A stretch of 18,386 nucleotides of DNA from a virus (taxonomy: Duplodnaviria > Heunggongvirae > Uroviricota > Caudoviricetes): the IMG/VR virus record IMGVR_UViG_2869947659_000009, positions 1 to 18,386 of that record, one strand, 5' to 3'. The notes under the pieces are model-generated. The model had not been told where the DNA came from, did no database searches, and saw only the letters and a program-made list of their open reading frames with translations. Shown piece by piece: positions 1-9,704 of the stretch. Position 1 is the stretch's first letter, and each line of letters starts with the position of its first letter. The position numbers and the translations under genes are program-made.

Positions 1-342
1 ATGATGAAAAAAAGTATTCTGGCGTTTCTGTTACTCACCAGTTCTGCAGCGGCGCTGGCTGCACCGCAGGTGATTACCGTCAGTCGTTTTGAAGTGGGTA
101 AAGACAAATGGGCGTTTAATCGCGAAGAGGTGATGCTGACTTGCCGACCGGGTAATGCTTTGTATGTTATTAATCCGAGTACCCTCGTGCAGTATCCTTT
201 AAACGATATCGCACAAAAGGAAGTTGCCAGTGGGAAGACCAATGCCCAACCCATTTCGGTGATTCAGATTGATGATCCTAACAATCCCGGCGAAAAAATG
301 AGTCTGGCACCGTTTATAGAACGAGCTGAAAAACTCTGTTAA
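1..342 (+). CDS. yebY: YebY-like small secreted protein (DUF2511 family), 113 aa
   Basis: Complete ORF with an N-terminal signal peptide ([22 protein letters not shown]). Sequence recognised from memory as E. coli YebY, and the sdsR sRNA lies immediately downstream on the same strand as in E. coli K-12. Followed by a hairpin terminator. Confidence 0.65.
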
Positions 343-377
343 TTACCTAAAATAGCCTTTTGATTTCCAATAAAAAA

Positions 378-414
378 ACCGCCTCAGTTCTTTCACCAGA
401 ACGGGCGGTTTTTA
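378..414. terminator. Bidirectional intrinsic terminator (yebY on + strand; candidate RyeA 3' end on - strand)
   Basis: Imperfect GC-rich hairpin accgcctcagttctttcaccagaacgggcggt, preceded by an A7 run and followed by a T5 run, so it reads as stem plus U-tract on both strands. Confidence 0.5.
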
Positions 415-500
415 ACATTTCAGCTGATGACCACCACGCTTTTTATTGACCATTTTGCACGCAAACTGGAAAACCTGGCGTCGTCATCTATTCTTAAAGG

Positions 501-603
501 GCAAGGCAACTAAGCCTGCATTAATGCCAACTTTTAGCGCACGGCTCTCTCCCAAGAGCCATTTCCCTGGACCGAATACAGGAATCGTATTCGGTCTTTT
601 TTT
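501..603 (+). ncRNA. sdsR: SdsR (RyeB) small RNA, RpoS-dependent
   Basis: Sequence gcaaggcaactaagcctgcattaatgcc...ccgaatacaggaatcgtattcggtcttttttt matches my recollection of SdsR/RyeB, including its terminal hairpin and U-tract. A sigma-S-type -10 (tctattctt, 487-495) sits just upstream. Position downstream of yebY matches K-12 synteny. Confidence 0.6.
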
Positions 604-636
604 AATTTCATTTGAAATCAATTAGTTGCAAATGTC

Positions 637-656
637 TCCCCGAAATTCCCCGAAAT
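637..656 (+). repeat. Perfect 10-bp tandem direct repeat (tccccgaaat x2)
   Basis: Read directly at 637-646 and 647-656, in the 130-bp gap between the sdsR 3' end and the integrase stop codon. Candidate integrase arm-type or accessory-protein site. Confidence 0.6.
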
Positions 657-669
657 TTACTCGAATTTC

Positions 670-690
670 TGTATTCCGGTCTTTTTTGGT
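670..690 (+). repeat. Imperfect second copy of the sdsR 3' terminator end (att-core-like)
   Basis: tgtattccggtcttttttggt (670-690) versus cgtattcggtctttttttaat at the sdsR 3' end (586-606), about 84 bp apart, directly upstream of the integrase 3' end. Confidence 0.4.
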
Positions 691-734
691 TATATCACAA
701 CCAAAATACATTTAACAATCCATTTACGTTAAAA

Positions 735-1263
735 TCAGAGCAGTAAGTACGTTTTTTCTCTCTCATCAAGATACATTTTTGTTGTCTTCTCCGATGTGTG
801 GCCAAGTAGACGCTGAGCAAATTCTTCTCCACATGTTTCTTTGTACAATCGTCCAGCCAGGCTTCTGACTTCGTGAAAAGTTGGTGGGTTTTCACTGAAC
901 TGGATACCTGTTAATTTTCTGGCTGCGACAAATTTCTTTGTCAGGCCGTCCGGGTGAATGCTGCCGTCAGGGCTGTTTTTTCTAATCCCGGCACTGATTA
1001 GATAATCCCCCCTACTTACCATGCGGCACTGTTCAACTACTGCACCAAGTCGTAAACCAGCGACAGGAAGGCTGAGTGACAGGGGGATAGCAATCATCAT
1101 TCCTGTCTTAATTTGCCTGATGTGGAGACGATCATCATAAATATCACTGAACCGCATATTCGTTATGTCTTCGCGACGTTGTCCTGTTACAAGGGCTAAA
1201 TCCATAGCTAATGGGAACCATGCCGGAAGTTGATCTGCTGCCTCCCTGATGCAGTTGTATGTC
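735..1263 (-). pseudogene. int: Lambda-family tyrosine integrase, C-terminal catalytic fragment (separated from the rest by IS600)
   Basis: Translation ...LAMDLALVTGQRREDI...PPTFHEVRSLAGRLY...FAQRLLGHTSEKTTKMYLDERE aligns closely to the lambda Int C-terminus (LAMELAVVTGQR..., PPTFHELRSLSARLY, LLGHKSDTMASQY) with the catalytic R, HxxR and Y. The fragment ends exactly at the IS600 end at 1264. Confidence 0.85.
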
Positions 1264-1429
1264 TGAGGTAGCCTGAGTTTAACGGACACTCCTTCCTGAA
1301 ATAGAATGGCATCAGAAGGAGCTAATAATGAGCAGAAAAAACCAACGTTACTCTAAAGAGTTCAAAGCCGAAGCTGTCAGAACGGTTTGAACCGCCCCGA
1401 GTTTCCTGGAGAGTGTTTTATCTGTGAAC

Positions 1430-2320
1430 TCAGGCTGCCAGATCATCGTTTCCGATGGAAGCATAATAAGCTTTTTCTGCTTCTGCCGGAGGGATGTGGC
1501 CCAGCCTTTCCAGCAATCGTCGATTATTATACCAGTCCACCCACGTGAGTGTGGCCAGTTCCACTTCTGCACGGTTTTTCCAGCTCTTACGGTGTATTAC
1601 CTCCGCTTTGTAAAGACCATTGATGCTCTCCGCCATCGCGTTGTCATACGAGTCGCCTGTACTTCCTGTTGATGCCAGTAATCCGGCTTCCTTAAGCCGC
1701 TGTGTGTAGGCCAGCGATACATACTGAGAACCTTTATCACTGTGATGGACCGTGCCGGACGGTCGACGGGCCCATAACGCCTGCTCCAGAGCATCCAGCA
1801 CGAATGTCGTTTCCATGGACGATGAGACCCGCCACCCCACGATGTATCCGGCAAACACATCAATAATGAACGCCACATAGACGAAGCCCTGCCATGTGCT
1901 GACGTAAGTAAAATCAGCCACCCACAGCTGGTCAGGTCGTTCTGCCACGAACTGACGGTTTACGCGGTCGCCTGCGGCAACGGCTTTCCGGCTGATGGTC
2001 GTACGGACCTTTTTACCCCGGAGAACGCCGGCAAGTCCCATAACCGCCATGAGACGTGCCACAGTGCATCTGGCCACTCTGATACCTTCCCGTAACAACT
2101 GACGCCAGACTTTACGCACACCGTATACCTGATGATTCCCATCGTATACGCGCAGTATCTCTTTCTTCAGCCAGTCATCGCGCTGCGCACGGGCACTGCG
2201 TTTATCAGGATGATGTCGCTGTTGCTGACAGTGGTAATACGTTGACGGGGCAATATGTAGTTCACTGCATACCGGTCCGACCCCGTACAGCTTACGCAGC
2301 TTATCCAGCAGTGGCATCAC
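1430..2320 (-). CDS. IS629 OrfB (DDE transposase catalytic part)
   Basis: 296-aa uninterrupted [32 protein letters not shown]... with the DDE region ...WVADFTYV...HSDKGSQY... Confidence 0.85.
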
Positions 2321-2643
2321 TTTTTCCAGAGGCGGTCGAACTCCGCCTTCGCAAAATAAGCGGAAGCCTGGCGAAGGATATCGTTACTGCGGCGCAGTTC
2401 ACGATTTTCACGTTCCAGCTCTTTCAGACGCTGACGTTCAGCGGTGGTGAGCCCGCCATCACCGCCTCCGGTATCCCGCTCATGCTGGCGTACCCAGACA
2501 CGCAGAGTCTCCGGTGTACAGCCAATCTTTGGGGCAATGGAACAAATTGCCGCCCACTGTGAGTCATATTCGCCCTGACTTTCCAGAACCATACGAATCG
2601 CCCTCTGACGGACTTCGGGGGAAAAACGAGTATTTTTAGTCAT
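2317..2643 (-). CDS. IS629 OrfA (transposase N-terminal, HTH part)
   Basis: 108-aa [29 protein letters not shown]... recognised as IS629/IS1203-type OrfA. It overlaps orfB in the arrangement typical of IS3-family programmed frameshifting. Confidence 0.85.
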
Positions 2644-2978
2644 CCTGTTTACCTCTTTCTCAGGGAGTTTAGTCTCCAGGATTCCCGGGGCGGTTCAGTT
2701 CTTGAAAATCAACTTTCGATCAGTGAAGGCGCTTCCCGATTATCCCTTCCTGAAGGCACTTTAGGACAATGGGTTACCGCCGCCAGAAAAGGGCTCGGTA
2801 CTCCTGGTTCCCGCACGGTGGCTGAACTGGAATCTGAAATTCTGCAACTGCGTAAGGCGTTAAATGAAGCTCGCCTTGAGCGAGATATATTAAAAAAAGC
2901 AACAGCGTATTTTGCACAGGAGTCGCTGAAAAATACGCGTTAATCGAACAATGGCGACAACAATTTCCCATTGAAGCG

Positions 2979-3797
2979 ATGTGTCAGGTATTTGGTGTAT
3001 CCAGGAGCGGTTATTACAACTGGGTACAGCATGAACCCTCAGACAGAAAACAAAGTGATGAGCGGCTAAAACTGGAGATTAAGGTGGCACATATCCGCAC
3101 TCGCGAAACATATGGAACCCGGCGGCTCCAGACGGAGCTGGCAGAGAATGGCATCATCGTTGGTCGTGACCGACTGGCACGTCTTCGTAAGGAGCTAAGG
3201 CTACGCTGTAAGCAGAAACGCAAGTTCAGAGCGACTACGAACCCGAACCACAATCTGCCAGTTGCGCCAAATCTGCTGAACCAGACGTTCGCTCCTACAG
3301 CACCAAATCAGGTCTGGGTGGCGGACCTGACGTATGTTGCCACACAGGAGGGATGGTTGTACCTCGCTGGCATCAAAGATGTTTATACGTGCGAAATTGT
3401 CGGCTACGCCATGGGAGAGCGCATGACAAAAGAGCTGACAGGTAAAGCCCTGTTTATGGCGCTCAGGAGCCAGCGCCCACCTGCCGGGCTAATCCACCAC
3501 TCTGATCGAGGTTCACAGTACTGCGCATACGATTACCGGGTCATACAGGAGCAGTCTGGTCTGAAAACATCAATGTCGCGTAAAGGTCACTGTTACGACA
3601 ACGCTCCGATGGAAAGCTTCTGGGGAACGCTGAAAAATGAGAGCCTGAGCCACTATCGTTTTAATAACCGGGATGAAGCCATCTCAGTAATACGGGAATA
3701 CATTGAGATTTTTTACAATCGTCAGCGTCGTCACTCTCGTCTGGGGAATATCTCCCCGGCAGCCTTCAGGGAAAAATATCATCAGATGGCTGCTTAA
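2979..3797 (+). CDS. IS600 copy A OrfB (DDE transposase part); its partner orfA is disrupted by IS629
   Basis: 272-aa ORF MCQVFGVSRSGYYNW...WVADLTYV...HHSDRGSQY... It ends ...HQMAA because of TAA at 3795-3797, where copies B and C have CAA and run six codons further. Confidence 0.75.
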   Translation: MCQVFGVSRSGYYNWVQHEPSDRKQSDERLKLEIKVAHIRTRETYGTRRLQTELAENGIIVGRDRLARLRKELRLRCKQKRKFRATTNPNHNLPVAPNLLNQTFAPTAPNQVWVADLTYVATQEGWLYLAGIKDVYTCEIVGYAMGERMTKELTGKALFMALRSQRPPAGLIHHSDRGSQYCAYDYRVIQEQSGLKTSMSRKGHCYDNAPMESFWGTLKNESLSHYRFNNRDEAISVIREYIEIFYNRQRRHSRLGNISPAAFREKYHQMAA

Positions 3798-3840
3798 AAA
3801 AAGAACAAATGGTAGTGTCCGCTATTGCCAGTACACCTCA

Positions 3841-4276
3841 GTCTTTAGTTTCAGTCGTTCTCTTGTAACTACTATTTTCGGTGCTCTTGTTGGCGTGACT
3901 GGATTTTGAGATATACGTCCTTCAACAATGGCCTCGCGAAACATATCAGACAACACAGAACGCATTGATCCTGCCATTGTGTTTTTCCCTCCTTCAATCC
4001 ACAAATCAAGAAACTCGGCAATATGGCGAGTGGTTATTTCTGTCAGTAAAATCTCTCCCAATTTTTCTTTTATTGTCTTCAGTTGATTTGCCCGAATTTT
4101 ATAAGTATTTCTGGACACTTTTCTCCTTATAAGAATCGTTTTGTAACGTTCAATCCAGTCTGCCATAGTAAATGAGTCGAACCCTTTAAGTTTTTCAATT
4201 AAGGCAGCAGGAGAGTAGTTTTTGTATATATAATGATTTGCTTCAATTGCCTGCGCTACTGCATCTCTTCTTGAAA
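3841..4276 (-). pseudogene. int: Lambda-family integrase, central (core-binding) fragment; 5' end missing at the IS911 junction
   Basis: Translation RRDAVAQAIEANHYIY...WIERYKTIL...ITTRHIAEFLDLWIEGGKN...MRSVLSDMFREAIVEGRISQNPV aligns to lambda Int residues about 40-180. Removing IS600 and one GTC copy rejoins it in frame to the 735-1263 fragment (...RERLKLKT/YNCIREAADQ...). The upstream boundary is the IS911 end at 4277. Confidence 0.8.
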
Positions 4277-4284
4277 TGAAGTGG

Positions 4285-5453
<1,169 letters not shown>

Positions 5454-5572
5454 TGGAGCACCTGTGTTGTTCTGAGGTGAGCATATCACCTCTGTTCAGG
5501 TGGCCAAATTCAGTGTGCCACTTCATAGATAGGCCTGTGTGTTTATTGCTCGTTGAAAAAGCGCCATAGATT

Positions 5573-5869
5573 TTAGTCCTCCAAATCAATATCAACCTGG
5601 TGGTGGGCAATGGTTTCAGCCATGTACCGGATGTGTTCTGCCATGCGCTCCTGAAACTCAACATCATCATCAAATGCGTGGCTGATTGCCTGTTTATTGG
5701 CACCGTGGCGTTGCAAATGGTCGATGCAGAGCGATTCAAACAGGTGCTGAGGCAGACCTTTTTCCAGATCGTCCGCCAGTTCCGTTTCTTTTTCTTCACG
5801 AACGATCTGCTGGTAGTGACGAGCCCATGCCATTTCTTCAATACGATCAAAAATCGGGTAAGCGCTCAT
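5573..5869 (-). CDS. Hypothetical acidic 98-aa protein (prophage early-left region)
   Basis: [43 protein letters not shown]... with a GGAG Shine-Dalgarno 9 nt upstream of the ATG at 5869. No family recognised. It lies immediately beside the IS911 end. Confidence 0.5.
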
Positions 5870-7577
5870 CACTGGTCACTCCAAAATTTTCAAGCTTGTT
5901 GGCAATCATCATTGCGATGCCAGGGATTGCAGGCGCATAGGCTATGCACGCAGGATTCGCACATAAACCGTAAACCGCCGCAATCAACACCTGTTTTTTT
6001 CCAGTTGAGTTCATCTTCGCCAGTTTCATTATTGCTATCATTATGCTGATCGCTGCCAGCGTTCTCCGGCAACAAATCATCAGCTTTTTCCGTTTTCTTC
6101 GGCTCTTCTTCCTGTGCTTCATCTGGTTTTTTTCGTCAAAAGTTTCCTGATAAGTTGCGTCTCCCATCACCGCGCCACAGTCAGGGCAGTTATCCTCGCC
6201 AGTCTGATTGCAGGGTGTTCCCTCCTCCGGTTCGCTGTTCTGGTGCTGTTTATCTTCAGTCTGTCGCACTTCATTTTCCGTTTTTTTGACTTCATTTGAG
6301 GAGATATGATGACCGGGAATCCATTTCGAATCATTCGGGTCGCTAATCCCTTCAACAAATTCTCCGCGAGAGGCAGCCAGTAATTTGTCTGCATCGACAG
6401 GATTTTTGGGCGGAATGTTTTTCCGGGCTTCATGGAGTTCTGTCCGCAGTTTCTGATATTTCGCATCAACAGCATTTACCTGTGACTGAGCATCCAGCGG
6501 CTGCGTGTCCTGATGATGTTCAGTTGCATCCGGTTCCACTGTTTCAGCCGTTGCCTGTTCATCTGCCATTGCGCAAGATGGTTGCGGTTTTTCTTCATCA
6601 TCCTGTTTTCCTTCTTCTGTTACACGTTGCGGCATCGGGGCAGAGGAGCGACCGCAGGCAATATCCACGATTTCCGGATCAGGGTTGGCATGATCGGTTT
6701 CAGTCAGTACCTTGTTCAGATATTCAGTGACGTGCGCGGGGATGACCTCGATACCAATCGGTGCTTCTTTCACTGACGCAACCACGATGGCGCGGGAATA
6801 ATCCATCCCGCCAGGCATGGTGATGAATTTGTCGCGGAAAACAGAAAAGGGTGGTTTATTTTCAGCGATAATTTCCTCAATGCGTTTAGCGTGTGCCGGA
6901 TGAAGGTTATAAATATCCACGTCCATTGAACGGGCCAGTACGCCAGTGGCTACGTCGCGCGCCAGCGACGTCAGATCGTGGACGAAACCTTCGCCGCGAT
7001 CGGTGAGGTTCCCGCCGCCAGCATTCGCACCGGAAGCCGTGCGCGTGATGCGTGAAACACGATTTCCTTTCATCCACTCTTTTGTCAGCAGACCGCGATC
7101 GGTGTAGTTGGCATCCAGATATGCTTCGAAAAAAGCAGTCATCAGTCCCAGATTTGAATTGCCAGGATTAGGGAAAACTTTGTCAGTATCACGCACGAGT
7201 TTGTGGAGATCGCGAATTTCCAGCGGGTCGAGCAGGCTGGTTTTATGCGAAACAGCCAGGGCAGTAACAGCTGGTAGTTCCTCAGCCCGTGCAATGTGTA
7301 ATGCCTGGAGTTCGTCGCGTGAAACGTACGTTACCGGTTTTTCGCTGCCGTGTTGAGCAAGCCAGCGAATGGGCAGCTCCTGACCAGAAATCGGGAGTAG
7401 CATATTCTCCTCAATCTCCGTCATGTCTTCGCCATTAACATTGGTATTGTCAGTGCTGGCTGGTTTGTCCTGCGCAGAGGGTGAGGGCGCGATAAATACC
7501 ATTGTGATGCCATCTTCCCCGCCTTTTTCGTAACGGTTGCAGAATTCCGTATCAAACACGCCTTCTGGTGGGAGGTC
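5847..7577 (-). pseudogene. recE: RecE-like (exonuclease VIII family) gene, distal part; interrupted upstream by IS600 and apparently lacking the C-terminal nuclease domain
   Basis: Long ORF with strings ([107 protein letters not shown]) that match my recollection of the non-catalytic N-terminal two-thirds of Rac RecE. After ...DPNDSKW the sequence diverges and ends in [10 protein letters not shown]..., a polybasic run and a hydrophobic tail, with nothing resembling a PD-(D/E)xK nuclease domain. Confidence 0.55.
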
Positions 7578-7641
7578 TGAGGTAGCCTGAGTTTAACGGA
7601 CACTCCTTCCTGAAATAGAATGGCATCAGAAGGAGCTAATA

Positions 7642-7884
7642 ATGAGCAGAAAAAACCAACGTTACTCTAAAGAGTTCAAAGCCGAAGCTGTCAGAACGGT
7701 TCTTGAAAATCAACTTTCGATCAGTGAAGGCGCTTCCCGATTATCCCTTCCTGAAGGCACTTTAGGACAATGGGTTACCGCCGCCAGAAAAGGGCTCGGT
7801 ACTCCTGGTTCCCGCACGGTGGCTGAACTGGAATCTGAAATTCTGCAACTGCGTAAGGCGTTAAATGAAGCTCGCCTTGAGTGA
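7642..7884 (+). pseudogene. IS600 copy B orfA with nonsense mutation (80 codons instead of 100)
   Basis: Identical to copy C OrfA up to ...ALNEARLE, then TGA in place of CGA (a single C-to-T change at 7882). Confidence 0.7.
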
Positions 7885-7979
7885 GATATATTAAAAAAAG
7901 CAACAGCGTATTTTGCACAGGAGTCGCTGAAAAATACGCGTTAATCGAACAATGGCGACAACAATTTCCCATTGAAGCG

Positions 7980-8816
7980 ATGTGTCAGGTATTTGGTGTA
8001 TCCAGGAGCGGTTATTACAACTGGGTACAGCATGAACCCTCAGACAGAAAACAAAGTGATGAGCGGCTAAAACTGGAGATTAAGGTGGCACATATCCGCA
8101 CTCGCGAAACATATGGAACCCGGCGGCTCCAGACGGAGCTGGCAGAGAATGGCATCATCGTTGGTCGTGACCGACTGGCACGTCTTCGTAAGGAGCTAAG
8201 GCTACGCTGTAAGCAGAAACGCAAGTTCAGAGCGACTACGAACCCGAACCACAATCTGCCAGTTGCGCCAAATCTGCTGAACCAGACGTTCGCTCCTACA
8301 GCACCAAATCAGGTCTGGGTGGCGGACCTGACGTATGTTGCCACACAGGAGGGATGGTTGTACCTCGCTGGCATCAAAGATGTTTATACGTGCGAAATTG
8401 TCGGCTACGCCATGGGAGAGCGCATGACAAAAGAGCTGACAGGTAAAGCCCTGTTTATGGCGCTCAGGAGCCAGCGCCCACCTGCCGGGCTAATCCACCA
8501 CTCTGATCGAGGTTCACAGTACTGCGCATACGATTACCGGGTCATACAGGAGCAGTCTGGTCTGAAAACATCAATGTCGCGTAAAGGTCACTGTTACGAC
8601 AACGCTCCGATGGAAAGCTTCTGGGGAACGCTGAAAAATGAGAGCCTGAGCCACTATCGTTTTAATAACCGGGATGAAGCCATCTCAGTAATACGGGAAT
8701 ACATTGAGATTTTCTACAATCGTCAGCGTCGTCACTCTCGTCTGGGGAATATCTCCCCGGCAGCCTTCAGGGAAAAATATCATCAGATGGCTGCTCAAAA
8801 AAAGAACAAATGGTAG
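7980..8816 (+). CDS. IS600 copy B OrfB (DDE transposase part)
   Basis: Open frame MCQVFGVSRSGYY...HQMAAQKKNKW. The upstream in-frame extension exists only because the orfA stop is displaced. Confidence 0.75.
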   Translation: MCQVFGVSRSGYYNWVQHEPSDRKQSDERLKLEIKVAHIRTRETYGTRRLQTELAENGIIVGRDRLARLRKELRLRCKQKRKFRATTNPNHNLPVAPNLLNQTFAPTAPNQVWVADLTYVATQEGWLYLAGIKDVYTCEIVGYAMGERMTKELTGKALFMALRSQRPPAGLIHHSDRGSQYCAYDYRVIQEQSGLKTSMSRKGHCYDNAPMESFWGTLKNESLSHYRFNNRDEAISVIREYIEIFYNRQRRHSRLGNISPAAFREKYHQMAAQKKNKW

Positions 8817-8841
8817 TGTCCGCTATTGCCAGTACACCTCA

Positions 8842-9054
8842 GTCATCAACAACGGGCAAATTGACGCGAACAGGTTTTTTGAAGTCATCTTCATCGTATC
8901 CAGCATCGTCAATCGCAACAGCACCACGGGAGATGGCAATGGATAATTTTTTCGCTTCAGCCCAGTAAAAACCGCCTTTAATACCGAGACGTTTTCTTAC
9001 TTTGTCATTTTTTGCTTCGTAATACAGTGGGTAAACTTGTTTATCGGTGTTCAT
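8842..9054 (-). pseudogene. recE: RecE-like gene, N-terminal 70 codons (upstream of the IS600 insertion)
   Basis: ORF MNTDKQVYPLYYEAKND...KPVRVNLPVVDD with a GAGG Shine-Dalgarno before the ATG at 9054. Removing IS600 B and one GTC copy gives the in-frame junction ...[23 protein letters not shown]..., resembling the RecE segment [23 protein letters not shown]. Confidence 0.5.
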
Positions 9055-9124
9055 TGTTTTTTAACCTCAACTCAGATTAAAATTACTGCGAGTGATGAAT
9101 AAATGTCCCAGGTTCTTCACTCAG

Positions 9125-9154
9125 GCCTGCACAGTGTGCAGGCTTTCTTTTTTT
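9125..9154 (+). terminator. Intrinsic-terminator-like hairpin on the + strand
   Basis: gcctgcac-agt-gtgcaggc stem-loop followed by tttcttttttt, in the 176-bp gap between two minus-strand genes. On the minus strand the hairpin is not followed by a U-tract. Confidence 0.4.
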
Positions 9155-9230
9155 CAGATTTCACCTTTTAATTTCATTGCAATCAGAGTTGCCAGAAATT
9201 CGGCTTTTTTTTCTGCGGGCAGATTCTTTC

Positions 9231-9428
9231 CTATGTGCACCAGACACATTTTTTTACACCATCGTTAAGTGTTTTAACGTTGCCTGATGGACCGTCGATA
9301 TCAACCACAGTGAATGGGGTTTCTTTATTTTCTGTCTTAATCACGTAGCCAATACGCTTTCCTTCCAGATTAACCTCGTGAACAATGTCATCAGTAGTTA
9401 CAACAGTGGCTTCATAACTGGTAATCAT
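9231..9428 (-). CDS. Hypothetical 65-aa protein
   Basis: ORF MITSYEATVVTTDDIVHEVNLEGKRIGYVIKTENKETPFTVVDIDGPSGNVKTLNDGVKKCVWCT with a strong AAGGAG Shine-Dalgarno 7 nt upstream of the ATG at 9428. C-terminal CxxC. No family recognised. Confidence 0.5.
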   Translation of the reverse strand: MITSYEATVVTTDDIVHEVNLEGKRIGYVIKTENKETPFTVVDIDGPSGNVKTLNDGVKKCVWCT

Positions 9429-9512
9429 GTTTTTCTCCTTAATTAAGGTTGAGCGAACCCCTGCCATTGCTGGCATATAAGAATGAAACCGGATATTTAT
9501 TACGGAACTGTT

Positions 9513-9704
9513 TTAAAGACCTGCCGGGATTTCGTTATTATCATGGTGAATAACTTTATCGACCGGATAACAGTCACCGGGAATTTTCTGTTTCGCTGCG
9601 GCAGTCATACATTCTTTCATTGAGCTGTATACGCCAGTAACCATGTCAACCGGTTCACCGGAAACAAGAAAAACCGTCAGAACGAGTGCAAATACTGTAT
9701 TCAT
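9513..9704 (-). CDS. Hypothetical 63-aa protein with N-terminal signal peptide or membrane anchor
   Basis: ORF MNTVFALVLTVFLVSGEPVDMVTGVYSSMKECMTAAAKQKIPGDCYPVDKVIHHDNNEIPAGL. Its ATG overlaps the stop of the upstream gene (ATGA at 9701-9704). Hydrophobic N-terminus and two Cys. Confidence 0.5.
   Translation of the reverse strand: MNTVFALVLTVFLVSGEPVDMVTGVYSSMKECMTAAAKQKIPGDCYPVDKVIHHDNNEIPAGL

Follow-up and report, generated by a model that had tools for sequence, protein, structure and literature searches.

The locus analysed here raises the question of where the bacterial chromosome ends and a prophage begins, and what the sequences lying between the small RNA (sRNA) gene sdsR and a lambda-type integrase gene represent. 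The DNA is the IMG/VR virus record IMGVR_UViG_2869947659_000009, positions 1–18,386 (the window, i.e. the whole stretch that was analysed, 18,386 nucleotides (nt) in length). SdsR is a conserved RpoS-dependent regulator with targets in porins, mismatch repair and tolC, and RyeA is its antisense antagonist, the pair being described as a toxin–antitoxin system. A preliminary description made from the letters alone had placed the prophage boundary at the 3′ end of sdsR and had noted an imperfect second copy of the sdsR terminator end and a 10-bp tandem repeat between sdsR and the integrase gene, all with coordinates that proved right to within one base. It had offered these elements as an attachment (att) core with arm-type sites, or as the scar of an earlier integration. 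We found that the region 578–735 as a whole is best explained as the attL of a lambdoid prophage whose lambda-type integrase (Int) is specific for sdsR, and we put the probability of this reading at roughly 85%. The features on which it is built are as follows.

504–603, plus strand: sdsR (ryeB) sRNA gene, intact; Rfam RF00111 SdsR_RyeB, 118 bits, full length.
463–607, minus strand: conserved body of ryeA (sraC), 145 nt; Rfam RF00101 SraC_RyeA, 179 bits.
578–604, no strand assigned: att core, the block common to attB (K-12), attP (phage pPE4), attL (window) and attR (strain 7_33_80A).
616–628, plus strand: integration host factor (IHF)-consensus site AATCAATTAGTTG, matching WATCAANNNNTTR; candidate counterpart of lambda H′.
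638–667, plus strand: three putative tandem arm-type Int sites, P′1 CCCCGAAAT (638–646), P′2 CCCCGAAAT (648–656) and P′3 ACTCGAATT (659–667).
671–687, plus strand: second copy of the sdsR terminator 3′ end, GTATTCCGGTCTTTTTT, which repeats GTATTCGGTCTTTTTT at 587–602 with one inserted C; possible core-type-like half-site of the P′ arm.
688–701, minus strand: conserved motif GGTTATATCACAAC, reading TGTGATATAAC on the minus strand; extended −10-like, with TG at 697–696 and TATAAC at 694–689, pointing toward sdsR.
735–1264, minus strand: integrase remnant, C-terminal catalytic part; Pfam Phage_integrase only, about residues 183–358 of 358.

The window was identical to a K-12 derivative up to position 604, bar positions 589 and 598, and unrelated to it from 605 onwards. 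Position 604 is the end of the sdsR region, and the chromosome/phage junction falls at 604/605. The stop of K-12 identity at 604, together with an uninterrupted site in 5191 of the 5426 complete E. coli genomes (split in the other 235), upheld the earlier view that an sRNA gene and not a tRNA gene is the attachment site. The same sequence as in the window to the right of 604, that is the same P′ arm, was present in 228 of these 5426 genomes.

The sdsR terminator consists of a perfect 11-bp stem (569–579 with 587–597), a 7-nt loop AGGAATC (580–586) and a T-run to 603; its fold has an energy of −15.4 kcal/mol, and a terminator scan called 569–597 only. The att core takes in this loop, the 3′ stem arm and the T tract. 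Within the last 27 bases shared with K-12, the window has A for G at 589 and T for C at 598; the last ~26 nt of sdsR are the phage copy of the core, and the bases that differ from K-12 match the phage attP. The remaining junction forms were recovered from other records. The E. coli genome NZ_CP074815.1 carries an intact prophage at sdsR, with a 358-aa integrase and an excisionase on the yebY side, and its attR, ~48 kb away beside pphA, reads gttgacgaaa-ACAGGAATCGTGTTCGGTCTCTTTTT-atctgttaaaagcc, i.e. the phage P arm, a core with K-12-type bases and the K-12 right flank. In the phage genome PP818812.1, attP joins the left arm of NZ_CP074815.1 to the right arm of the window around ACAGGAATCGTATTCGGTCTTTTTTT. 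A second attP was found in the Salmonella phage record OK490361.1, at 73% DNA identity over attP and integrase, and the attP form also occurs in an IMG/VR record (locus L052); among 50,697 deposited phage records, only two contained the sdsR core. The matching att copy that had been expected at the far end of the prophage was thus found in the intact relative NZ_CP074815.1, but the far end of the window's own prophage lies outside the window. Because attL has the phage-type bases at 589 and 598 where attR has those of K-12, strand exchange would lie to the left of 589, within 578–588. In two distant lineages, the identity between attP and attB begins 1–2 bases before the loop. By analogy with lambda and with tRNA-targeting integrases, which use anticodon or T stem-loops in this way, we infer that the 7-nt loop AGGAATC would be the overlap region and the stem arms the core-type Int sites.

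Two of the records that contain the core have peculiarities of their own. PP818812.1 (L005) bears the name “Actinobacillus phage vB_Apl-pPE4”; over the integrase/attP region it shares 96.7% identity with the E. coli/Shigella prophage, and it targets the enterobacterial sdsR terminator. The assignment of this phage to the host Actinobacillus pleuropneumoniae is open to doubt. In Yersinia thracica (NZ_CABHXX010000022.1, L086), the core and P′ arm are preceded by a left flank that is not sdsR, with a TTTCGAAAT motif at −124, and this locus is either an attP form (excised or tandem copy) or the attR of a neighbouring element.

The tyrosine-recombinase open reading frame (ORF) of the window has its stop codon at 735–737, 131 bp from the sdsR end. 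The adjacency of a lambda-type integrase to the sdsR terminator, as described before, therefore stands, but the gene is not whole: only its C-terminal part is left, a truncation which the preliminary description had missed. Homology to the intact integrase gene of Shigella flexneri stops at 1264, where an IS3-family insertion sequence (IS) element starts, and the window integrase is a dead fragment that has lost its arm-binding and core-binding domains. The exact 184-aa fragment is present in many NCBI assemblies. The intact relative, of 358 aa, contains Arm-DNA-bind_1 (PF09003), Phage_int_M and Phage_integrase domains and matched lambda Int (PDB 5j0n, 1z1b) over its full length with E = 1.4e-71. 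Relatives with 48–95% identity were found in Shigella, Citrobacter, Scandinavium, Buttiauxella, Rahnella, Rouxiella, Yersinia, Serratia and Erwinia, plus one Enterobacteriaceae genome, and sdsR followed right after the int stop in the same orientation in 16/16 complete relatives taken from genome contigs and IMG/VR. A scan of IMG/VR for the core brought out a further large class at sdsR, named class 2, with an Int of 362 aa that is 52% identical to the E. coli one and has the C-terminal end ...TKKYLDARGAEYVMV. In one genome with an intact integrase of 95% identity (Shigella flexneri SFBU1023, CP182556.1, L079), sdsR itself carries several substitutions and indels and scores 81 Rfam bits against 115–118 elsewhere, which could be real decay or an assembly error.

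From the core toward int, the arm was found to follow one plan in every lineage, with ~30 variable bp, three tandem 10–11-bp repeats and the second terminator copy. The region 616–628 aligns, with 14/15 positions identical, with lambda ATCAATTTGTTGCAA (the ATCAATTnGTTGCAA segment), which separates the lambda core from the P′ repeats and which we take to be the H′ IHF site. The match to the IHF consensus is found only in the E. coli and Salmonella lineages and is reversed in 4 Yersinia loci. Further on, the perfect tandem repeat of 2 × 10 bp noticed before (TCCCCGAAAT, 637–646 and 647–656) corresponds to P′1 plus P′2. Three repeats with an invariant CGAA core occur at this place in all 17 aligned loci of this integrase class, the alignment holding 8 long-arm and 11 short-arm rows including the window. 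The P′ sites lie at +61, +71 and +82 from the core start, and related P-arm motifs at −144 and −123.

Each repeat is composed of CGAAAT (or CGAAAA, CGAATT) and a 3-nt prefix. In the first class, the prefix is mostly uniform within an element and differs between elements (CCC/ACT, CCT, TAT, GTC, ACA, CTC), and class-2 elements mix prefixes inside one arm (ACA, CCC, ACT). Across 15 lineages, the prefix was found to covary with one residue of the Int arm-binding domain, located two positions after the motif NLPKNLTYR[KR] in the region of residues ~17–21 (L007, L066, L081–L096): D goes with CC[CT], R with GTC, Y with ACA, V or Q with TAT and S with CTC. Five integrases that are 76–80% identical to one another carry three prefixes, and two at 82% carry CCT/D and TAT/V; because such close integrases carry different prefixes, the prefix is independent of overall integrase relatedness. 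Identity over the whole N-terminal domain was of no use as a predictor of the arm-site type (0.74 vs 0.69, the ratio to the remainder of the protein being unchanged), and only the one residue tracked the prefix. There is thus strong comparative evidence, from position, conservation and covariation with the integrase, that the repeats would be arm-type sites, one of the possibilities raised in the preliminary description, and would be read by the Int N-terminal domain; the residue/prefix pairing may be a natural recognition code for the lambda-type arm-binding domain.

The second copy at 671–687 was found to be as regular a part of the arm. The 18.4-kb window contains the pattern GTATTC-N(0,1)-GGTCTTTTTT two times and no more, and 200 dinucleotide shuffles did not produce it once. 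The copy is present in the attP of PP818812.1 and OK490361.1 and in all the integrase lineages examined (down to 48% identity; Shigella to Yersinia, Serratia and Erwinia), with the consensus [GA]TAT[TC]C(C)GGTCTTTT, or ATATCCTGTCT in class 2. Its mean pairwise identity is 0.72–0.76, that of the arm repeats 0.74–0.79 and that of the core-to-P′1 spacer 0.50–0.54, and it did not vary in step with the arm-binding residue of Int. Short-arm lineages (Yersinia, Serratia and others; ~82 bp) have an int stop codon that overlaps with the T-run of the second copy, and in the long-arm lineages (E. coli, Shigella, Salmonella, Citrobacter and Scandinavium; ~131–136 bp) an extra ~48 bp lie between the copy and the int stop. 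The possibility that this ~48-bp spacer is a fossil of a short-arm int 3′ end was checked, and the similarity was not above that of shuffles. The idea that the second copy itself is the att core had to be given up, the core being the sdsR terminator itself at 578–604. Because its sequence is that of the core right half-site, does not covary with the Int residue and has no terminator fold, our guess is that the second copy may be an accessory core-type-like DNA site for protein binding. In the IMG/VR record IMGVR_UViG_2728369554_000022 (L029), the stretch between the two copies, exactly 84 bp and equivalent to window 603–687, has been lost, and with it all three arm sites and the candidate IHF site. 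Recombination between direct repeats would have this outcome, and the loss would lock the prophage in place.

An insertion at 604/605 also has a consequence for the opposite strand. In K-12, RyeA was lost when the ryeA −10 box ACCATA (TATGGT on the ryeA strand) was changed to CTCGAG (PMC6610125). From the primers given in that study, the K-12 ryeA +1 corresponds to window-equivalent position 641 and the −10 TATGGT to 654–649. Because both map to the right of the junction, the ryeA promoter and the first 37 nt of ryeA have been displaced by the prophage. The earlier suspicion that RyeA can no longer use its own promoter here was therefore well placed, the native promoter lying on the far side of the prophage. 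None of the 5426 E. coli genomes lacked the K-12 ryeA promoter/5′ segment. Three sister assemblies of the window (L097, GCA_002968185.1; L099, GCA_900457245.1; L100, GCA_002949175.1) have attR, at locus positions 8405–8775, inverted relative to attL and beside an IS. Inverted along with this attR are the ryeA promoter and the first 205 nt of pphA, and the rest of pphA is beside yebW; an IS-mediated inversion has split pphA, and the native promoter cannot feed ryeA in these assemblies.

A replacement promoter may be present in the long arm. The segment GTTATA[CT]CACA (TGTG[AG]TATAA on the ryeA strand) is the best-conserved non-core segment of the long-arm lineages, with 0.84 identity, and TGnTATAAC is a candidate phage-borne ryeA promoter with a predicted start near 682. 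According to Frohlich et al., SraC is longer by ~35 nt in Shigella and Salmonella than in E. coli and peaks earlier, with a potential −10 box ~35 nt further upstream (PMC3333887). TGnTATAAC lies 40 nt farther from sdsR than the −10 box of K-12 does, and judged by position it would be a good fit to the longer Shigella SraC.

Other explanations of the second copy were weighed against an accessory site within attL. That the second copy and the repeats are native sdsR–pphA intergenic sequence unrelated to the prophage has practically no chance of being right: the empty sites of K-12 and O157 read ...GGTCTCTTTTTATCTGTTAAAAGCC..., and in phage records as well as in other genera the two elements go together with the integrase. 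Alignment to the prophage-free locus was the comparison on which the preliminary description had let its proposal depend, and both elements are absent there and so are not native. It is also improbable that the second copy is a scar in the history of the elements, where of two tandem insertions at sdsR the first was deleted and a degenerate core was left 84 bp off, its conservation reflecting inheritance and perhaps gene conversion. Such a scar would account for a direct repeat of the core 3′ part, which is exact in some elements (GTATTCGGTCTTTTT in L032 and L067), for the deletion of the arm sites by recombination of the copies in L029, so that the copies interact, and for the record of the locus as a hot spot with repeated insertions (PMC7380047, PMC3333887). 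However, the second copy is part of attP in a phage record, and it keeps the same position after P′3 where the integrases are only 48–52% identical and the adjacent spacer ~50%, when a neutral relic would be expected to decay likewise. The arm sites between the copies match the P-arm motifs and covary with the linked integrase, and therefore are not the remnant of another element. A scar of an earlier integration in this very chromosome, as first suggested, does not agree with a sequence that belongs to attP in phage records and is conserved in every lineage examined.

Two further accounts give the second copy a role in transcription. As a back-up intrinsic terminator, it would stop sdsR read-through from running antisense into int. 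Termination at sdsR is leaky in K-12, where an sdsR–pphA read-through transcript is known (PMC6610125), the T-run of the copy is kept just before the convergent int stop, and CGAA of P′3 with TTCG of the copy can make a short stem. The hairpin of the second copy reached only −2.5 kcal/mol (z = 0.26), and those of two other lineages −3.4 and −4.1 kcal/mol, which with z from +0.26 to −1.08 is no better than shuffles; the terminator scan passed the copy over, its stem bases are invariant so that there is no compensatory change, and Rahnella-type arms have an A–G mismatch at the closing pair, all of which makes this account very improbable. Less remote, yet still unlikely, is that the copy is conserved as the initial transcribed region of a phage-borne RyeA, an RNA beginning AAAAGACCGGAAUAC, where it would provide extra complementarity to the SdsR 3′ end or a promoter-proximal element. 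The conserved extended −10-like motif 1–8 nt upstream on the minus strand in long-arm lineages speaks for it, as do its equivalents, TGTTATGGT at this place in the elements of class 2 and TGCTATAAA in some of those from Yersinia, and a published Shigella SraC that is longer by about the right amount. But several short-arm lineages have the copy and no good −10 (TGCTGTAAA, TGTTGTAAA, TTGTCTAAA), the SdsR 3′ arm would be a poor pairing partner when held in its −15.4 kcal/mol hairpin, and the transcript of such elements is a predicted one.

Under the preferred reading, in which 578–735 is attL, integration could proceed as follows. The sdsR terminator is the recombination core, and its loop would serve as the overlap region and its inverted stem arms as core-type Int sites. 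The phage brings its own loop, 3′ arm and T tract, so that integration rebuilds an intact sdsR, here with two phage-type bases. The P′ arm to the right of the core is colinear with that of lambda, having a candidate IHF site at 616–628 and putative arm-type sites at 638–667 for the Int N-terminal domain, and the second copy at 671–687 after the arm sites would most likely be an extra core-type-like protein-binding DNA site. Integration at the same time splits ryeA and sends its promoter and first 37 nt to the far prophage end. In the long-arm lineage, TGnTATAAC beyond the second copy would probably fire toward sdsR and give a chimeric RyeA ~40 nt longer. With the integrase cut by an IS and the rest IS-riddled as in Shigella and enteroinvasive E. 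coli (EIEC), the prophage is dead here and the arrangement fixed. In this account the junction, the core, the arm architecture, the conservation and the covariation are observed, and the exact cleavage points, the binding of proteins and the activity of the promoter are predicted.

Several observations weigh against this interpretation. The overlap region and all the protein sites were assigned by analogy, and the role given to the second copy is a guess. The IHF consensus is missing from many lineages. An attR core copy was not found in the 18.4-kb window with up to 3 mismatches allowed; the window has one core copy only, and the far prophage end lies beyond it. In Erwinia, the second copy has diverged (GATCCCCGGGC) and does not follow the changed host terminator. 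As regards the candidate promoter, a consensus sigma-70 promoter scan of 604–735 called none, passing over the motif because its hexamer does not end in T, and the proposed −10 hexamers TATAAC, TATAAG and TATAAA always come without the usual final T.

The empty site of K-12 was itself found to have a feature of interest. Its sdsR–pphA spacer holds AACCATAACACACACTCTACTGTCTGAGTCCAGCGTTTTTTAAC...TTGTTAAGATTATGTG (J53, L001 2849–2912), which aligns with the last ~22 codons of class-2 integrase genes (L108) at 44/64 identical positions. Both stretches lie to one and the same side of the core and face the same way, and over 14 codons they run colinear and in frame (K-12, K-T-L-D-S-D-S-R-V-C-V-M-V; class 2, K-Y-L-D-A-R-G-A-E-Y-V-M-V-stop). 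The signal needed +1/−1 local alignment with shuffle controls: the local score was 24, and 2000 dinucleotide shuffles gave a mean of 9.1 with a standard deviation of 1.3 and a maximum of 16, while the control alignments with the window's own arm and with the reverse complement scored 11 and 9, respectively. Default BLASTN of the K-12 spacer against class-2 elements returned the core only, and the match at the protein level was weak (tblastn E = 0.72, 6/13 residues identical). The validated −10 box TATGGT (within AACCATAAC) falls in the V-M-V codons of this stretch, and intact class-2 int genes carry the identical TGTTATGGT 36 nt further from sdsR.

With 69% identity over 64 nt, a moderate signal, we hypothesize that the “prophage-free” locus of K-12 may be an older scar and its ryeA promoter a domesticated integrase end. 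If so, a “core” sRNA of the textbooks would exist only thanks to an old prophage. More broadly, and tentatively, RyeA/SraC could be a phage-born antisense RNA: sdsR-targeting modules would carry an outward promoter, in the int 3′ end or in the P′ arm, that recreates the antisense RNA at each integration, and the E. coli ryeA promoter would be a fossil module. In that case, the second terminator copy would belong to what this family has added to the lambda layout of attP.

The surroundings of attL were examined for the state of the prophage and for the other end of RyeA. The features concerned are these.

1–342, plus strand: yebY, chromosomal, upstream of sdsR; 113-aa ORF, named YebY family protein in matching E. 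coli records.
374–413, both strands: bidirectional terminator hairpin with the inverted repeat AAAAACCGCC/GGCGGTTTTT; yebY end on the plus strand.
1265–3841, no strand assigned: nested IS3-family elements with transposase matches, the first (1265–1387 and 2698–3841) split by a second at 1388–2697.

On the minus strand, we infer that the hairpin at 374–413 is the expected end of RyeA, ~263–272 nt from the K-12 start; published RyeA 3′ ends lie at +261 to +270 (PMC6610125). Window positions 1–1387 are 99.7–99.8% identical to four NCBI assemblies, GCA_002949345.1 among them, and by BLAST the segment 1388–2697 is an extra insertion relative to the sister assemblies, with an apparent 3-bp overlap of its flanks (1385–1387 and 2698–2700). 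Elsewhere the window contains further copies of IS3-family elements, a fragment of RecE, an effector gene of the IpaH family and a Rha-type gene with C4/isrK RNAs; it represents a lambdoid prophage in decay, of Shigella/EIEC type. The 18 kb hold at least five ORFs for IS3-family transposases, and ALIL frameshift pseudoknots (Rfam) were located at 2246–2362 and 15449–15565. The C4 antisense RNA (Rfam, 79 bits) and isrK (65 bits) lie side by side on the minus strand at 10506–10694, in the 5′ part of the Rha-family ORF 9900–10745, an arrangement that resembles the isrK/anti-repressor region of Gifsy-1. The IpaH-family type III secretion system E3 ubiquitin ligase gene at 16671–18386 on the minus strand (NCBIfam IpaH_Shig, 564 bits) continues past the window end, so that the prophage remnant carries ipaH; within the E. 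coli collection, an O121 strain with ipaH3 (NZ_CP119441.1) matched best.

For regulation, these findings mean that Shigella/EIEC and ~4% of E. coli genomes run the SdsR/RyeA circuit with a different RyeA, sdsR being intact and the RyeA promoter and 5′ end replaced, and this agrees with the published longer, earlier-peaking Shigella SraC. For phage biology, they provide a series of naturally occurring lambda-type attP sites in which the covariation of Int residue and prefix can be read, and which have one conserved element without a lambda counterpart, at the same target from Escherichia to Yersinia, Serratia and Erwinia. In the literature, where Balbontin et al. (2008) was covered by summaries only, no description was found of the lambda-like attP anatomy, the extent of the integrase family, the residue/prefix covariation, the conserved second half-site or the integrase fossil of K-12. 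Integration at the ryeB end with an altered ryeA in Salmonella and the altered Shigella SraC are already published, and the window is a further degraded instance.

The insertion hot spot in Salmonella, which the preliminary description had mentioned, does exist in print (Balbontin et al, 2008, J Bacteriol 190:4075, as summarised in PMC7380047). According to that summary, phage PhiW104 uses the final 23 bp of ryeB as its att site, and in lysogens the 5′ part of ryeA is altered, with RyeA going down and RyeB up. As far as the accounts of this ryeA/ryeB hot spot go (PMC7380047, PMC3333887), the target is the same as here, the last ~23–27 bp of ryeB/sdsR and internal to ryeA, and so is the outcome, with sdsR intact and the 5′ part of ryeA replaced; the window differs in being a dead, IS-riddled remnant in a Shigella/EIEC-type chromosome. 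The Yersinia enterocolitica prophage vB_Yen_24-YE00064 (PMC12653942, 2025) has a 27-bp att and an insertion between the integrase gene and yebY, as in the Yersinia relatives found here. This prophage was compared by its description only, in which the sRNA gene is not named as the target.

Tyrosine integrases that target tRNA and tmRNA genes (Williams 2002, as cited in PMC3603311) share, on that account, the symmetric stem-loop of a small-RNA gene with a 7-nt loop, the rebuilding of the gene by a 3′ part from the phage and an int gene adjoining the rebuilt end. In contrast, the target here is the rho-independent terminator of an Hfq-dependent sRNA, and ryeA on the opposite strand spans the site and is not rebuilt. 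With lambda, the system has in common a full-length Int homologue with an arm-binding domain and an excisionase gene upstream of int, both in the intact relatives, and the attP order of P1, P2, core, a candidate H′, three tandem P′ sites and an int 3′ end facing the P′ arm. It differs from lambda in that the core is the terminator hairpin of an RNA gene and not the gal–bio intergenic attB, and the arm sites are nnnCGAAAT and not the lambda motif. Furthermore, a core-like half-site follows P′3, where in lambda the int stop comes directly, and the long-arm lineage has a further spacer of ~48 bp.

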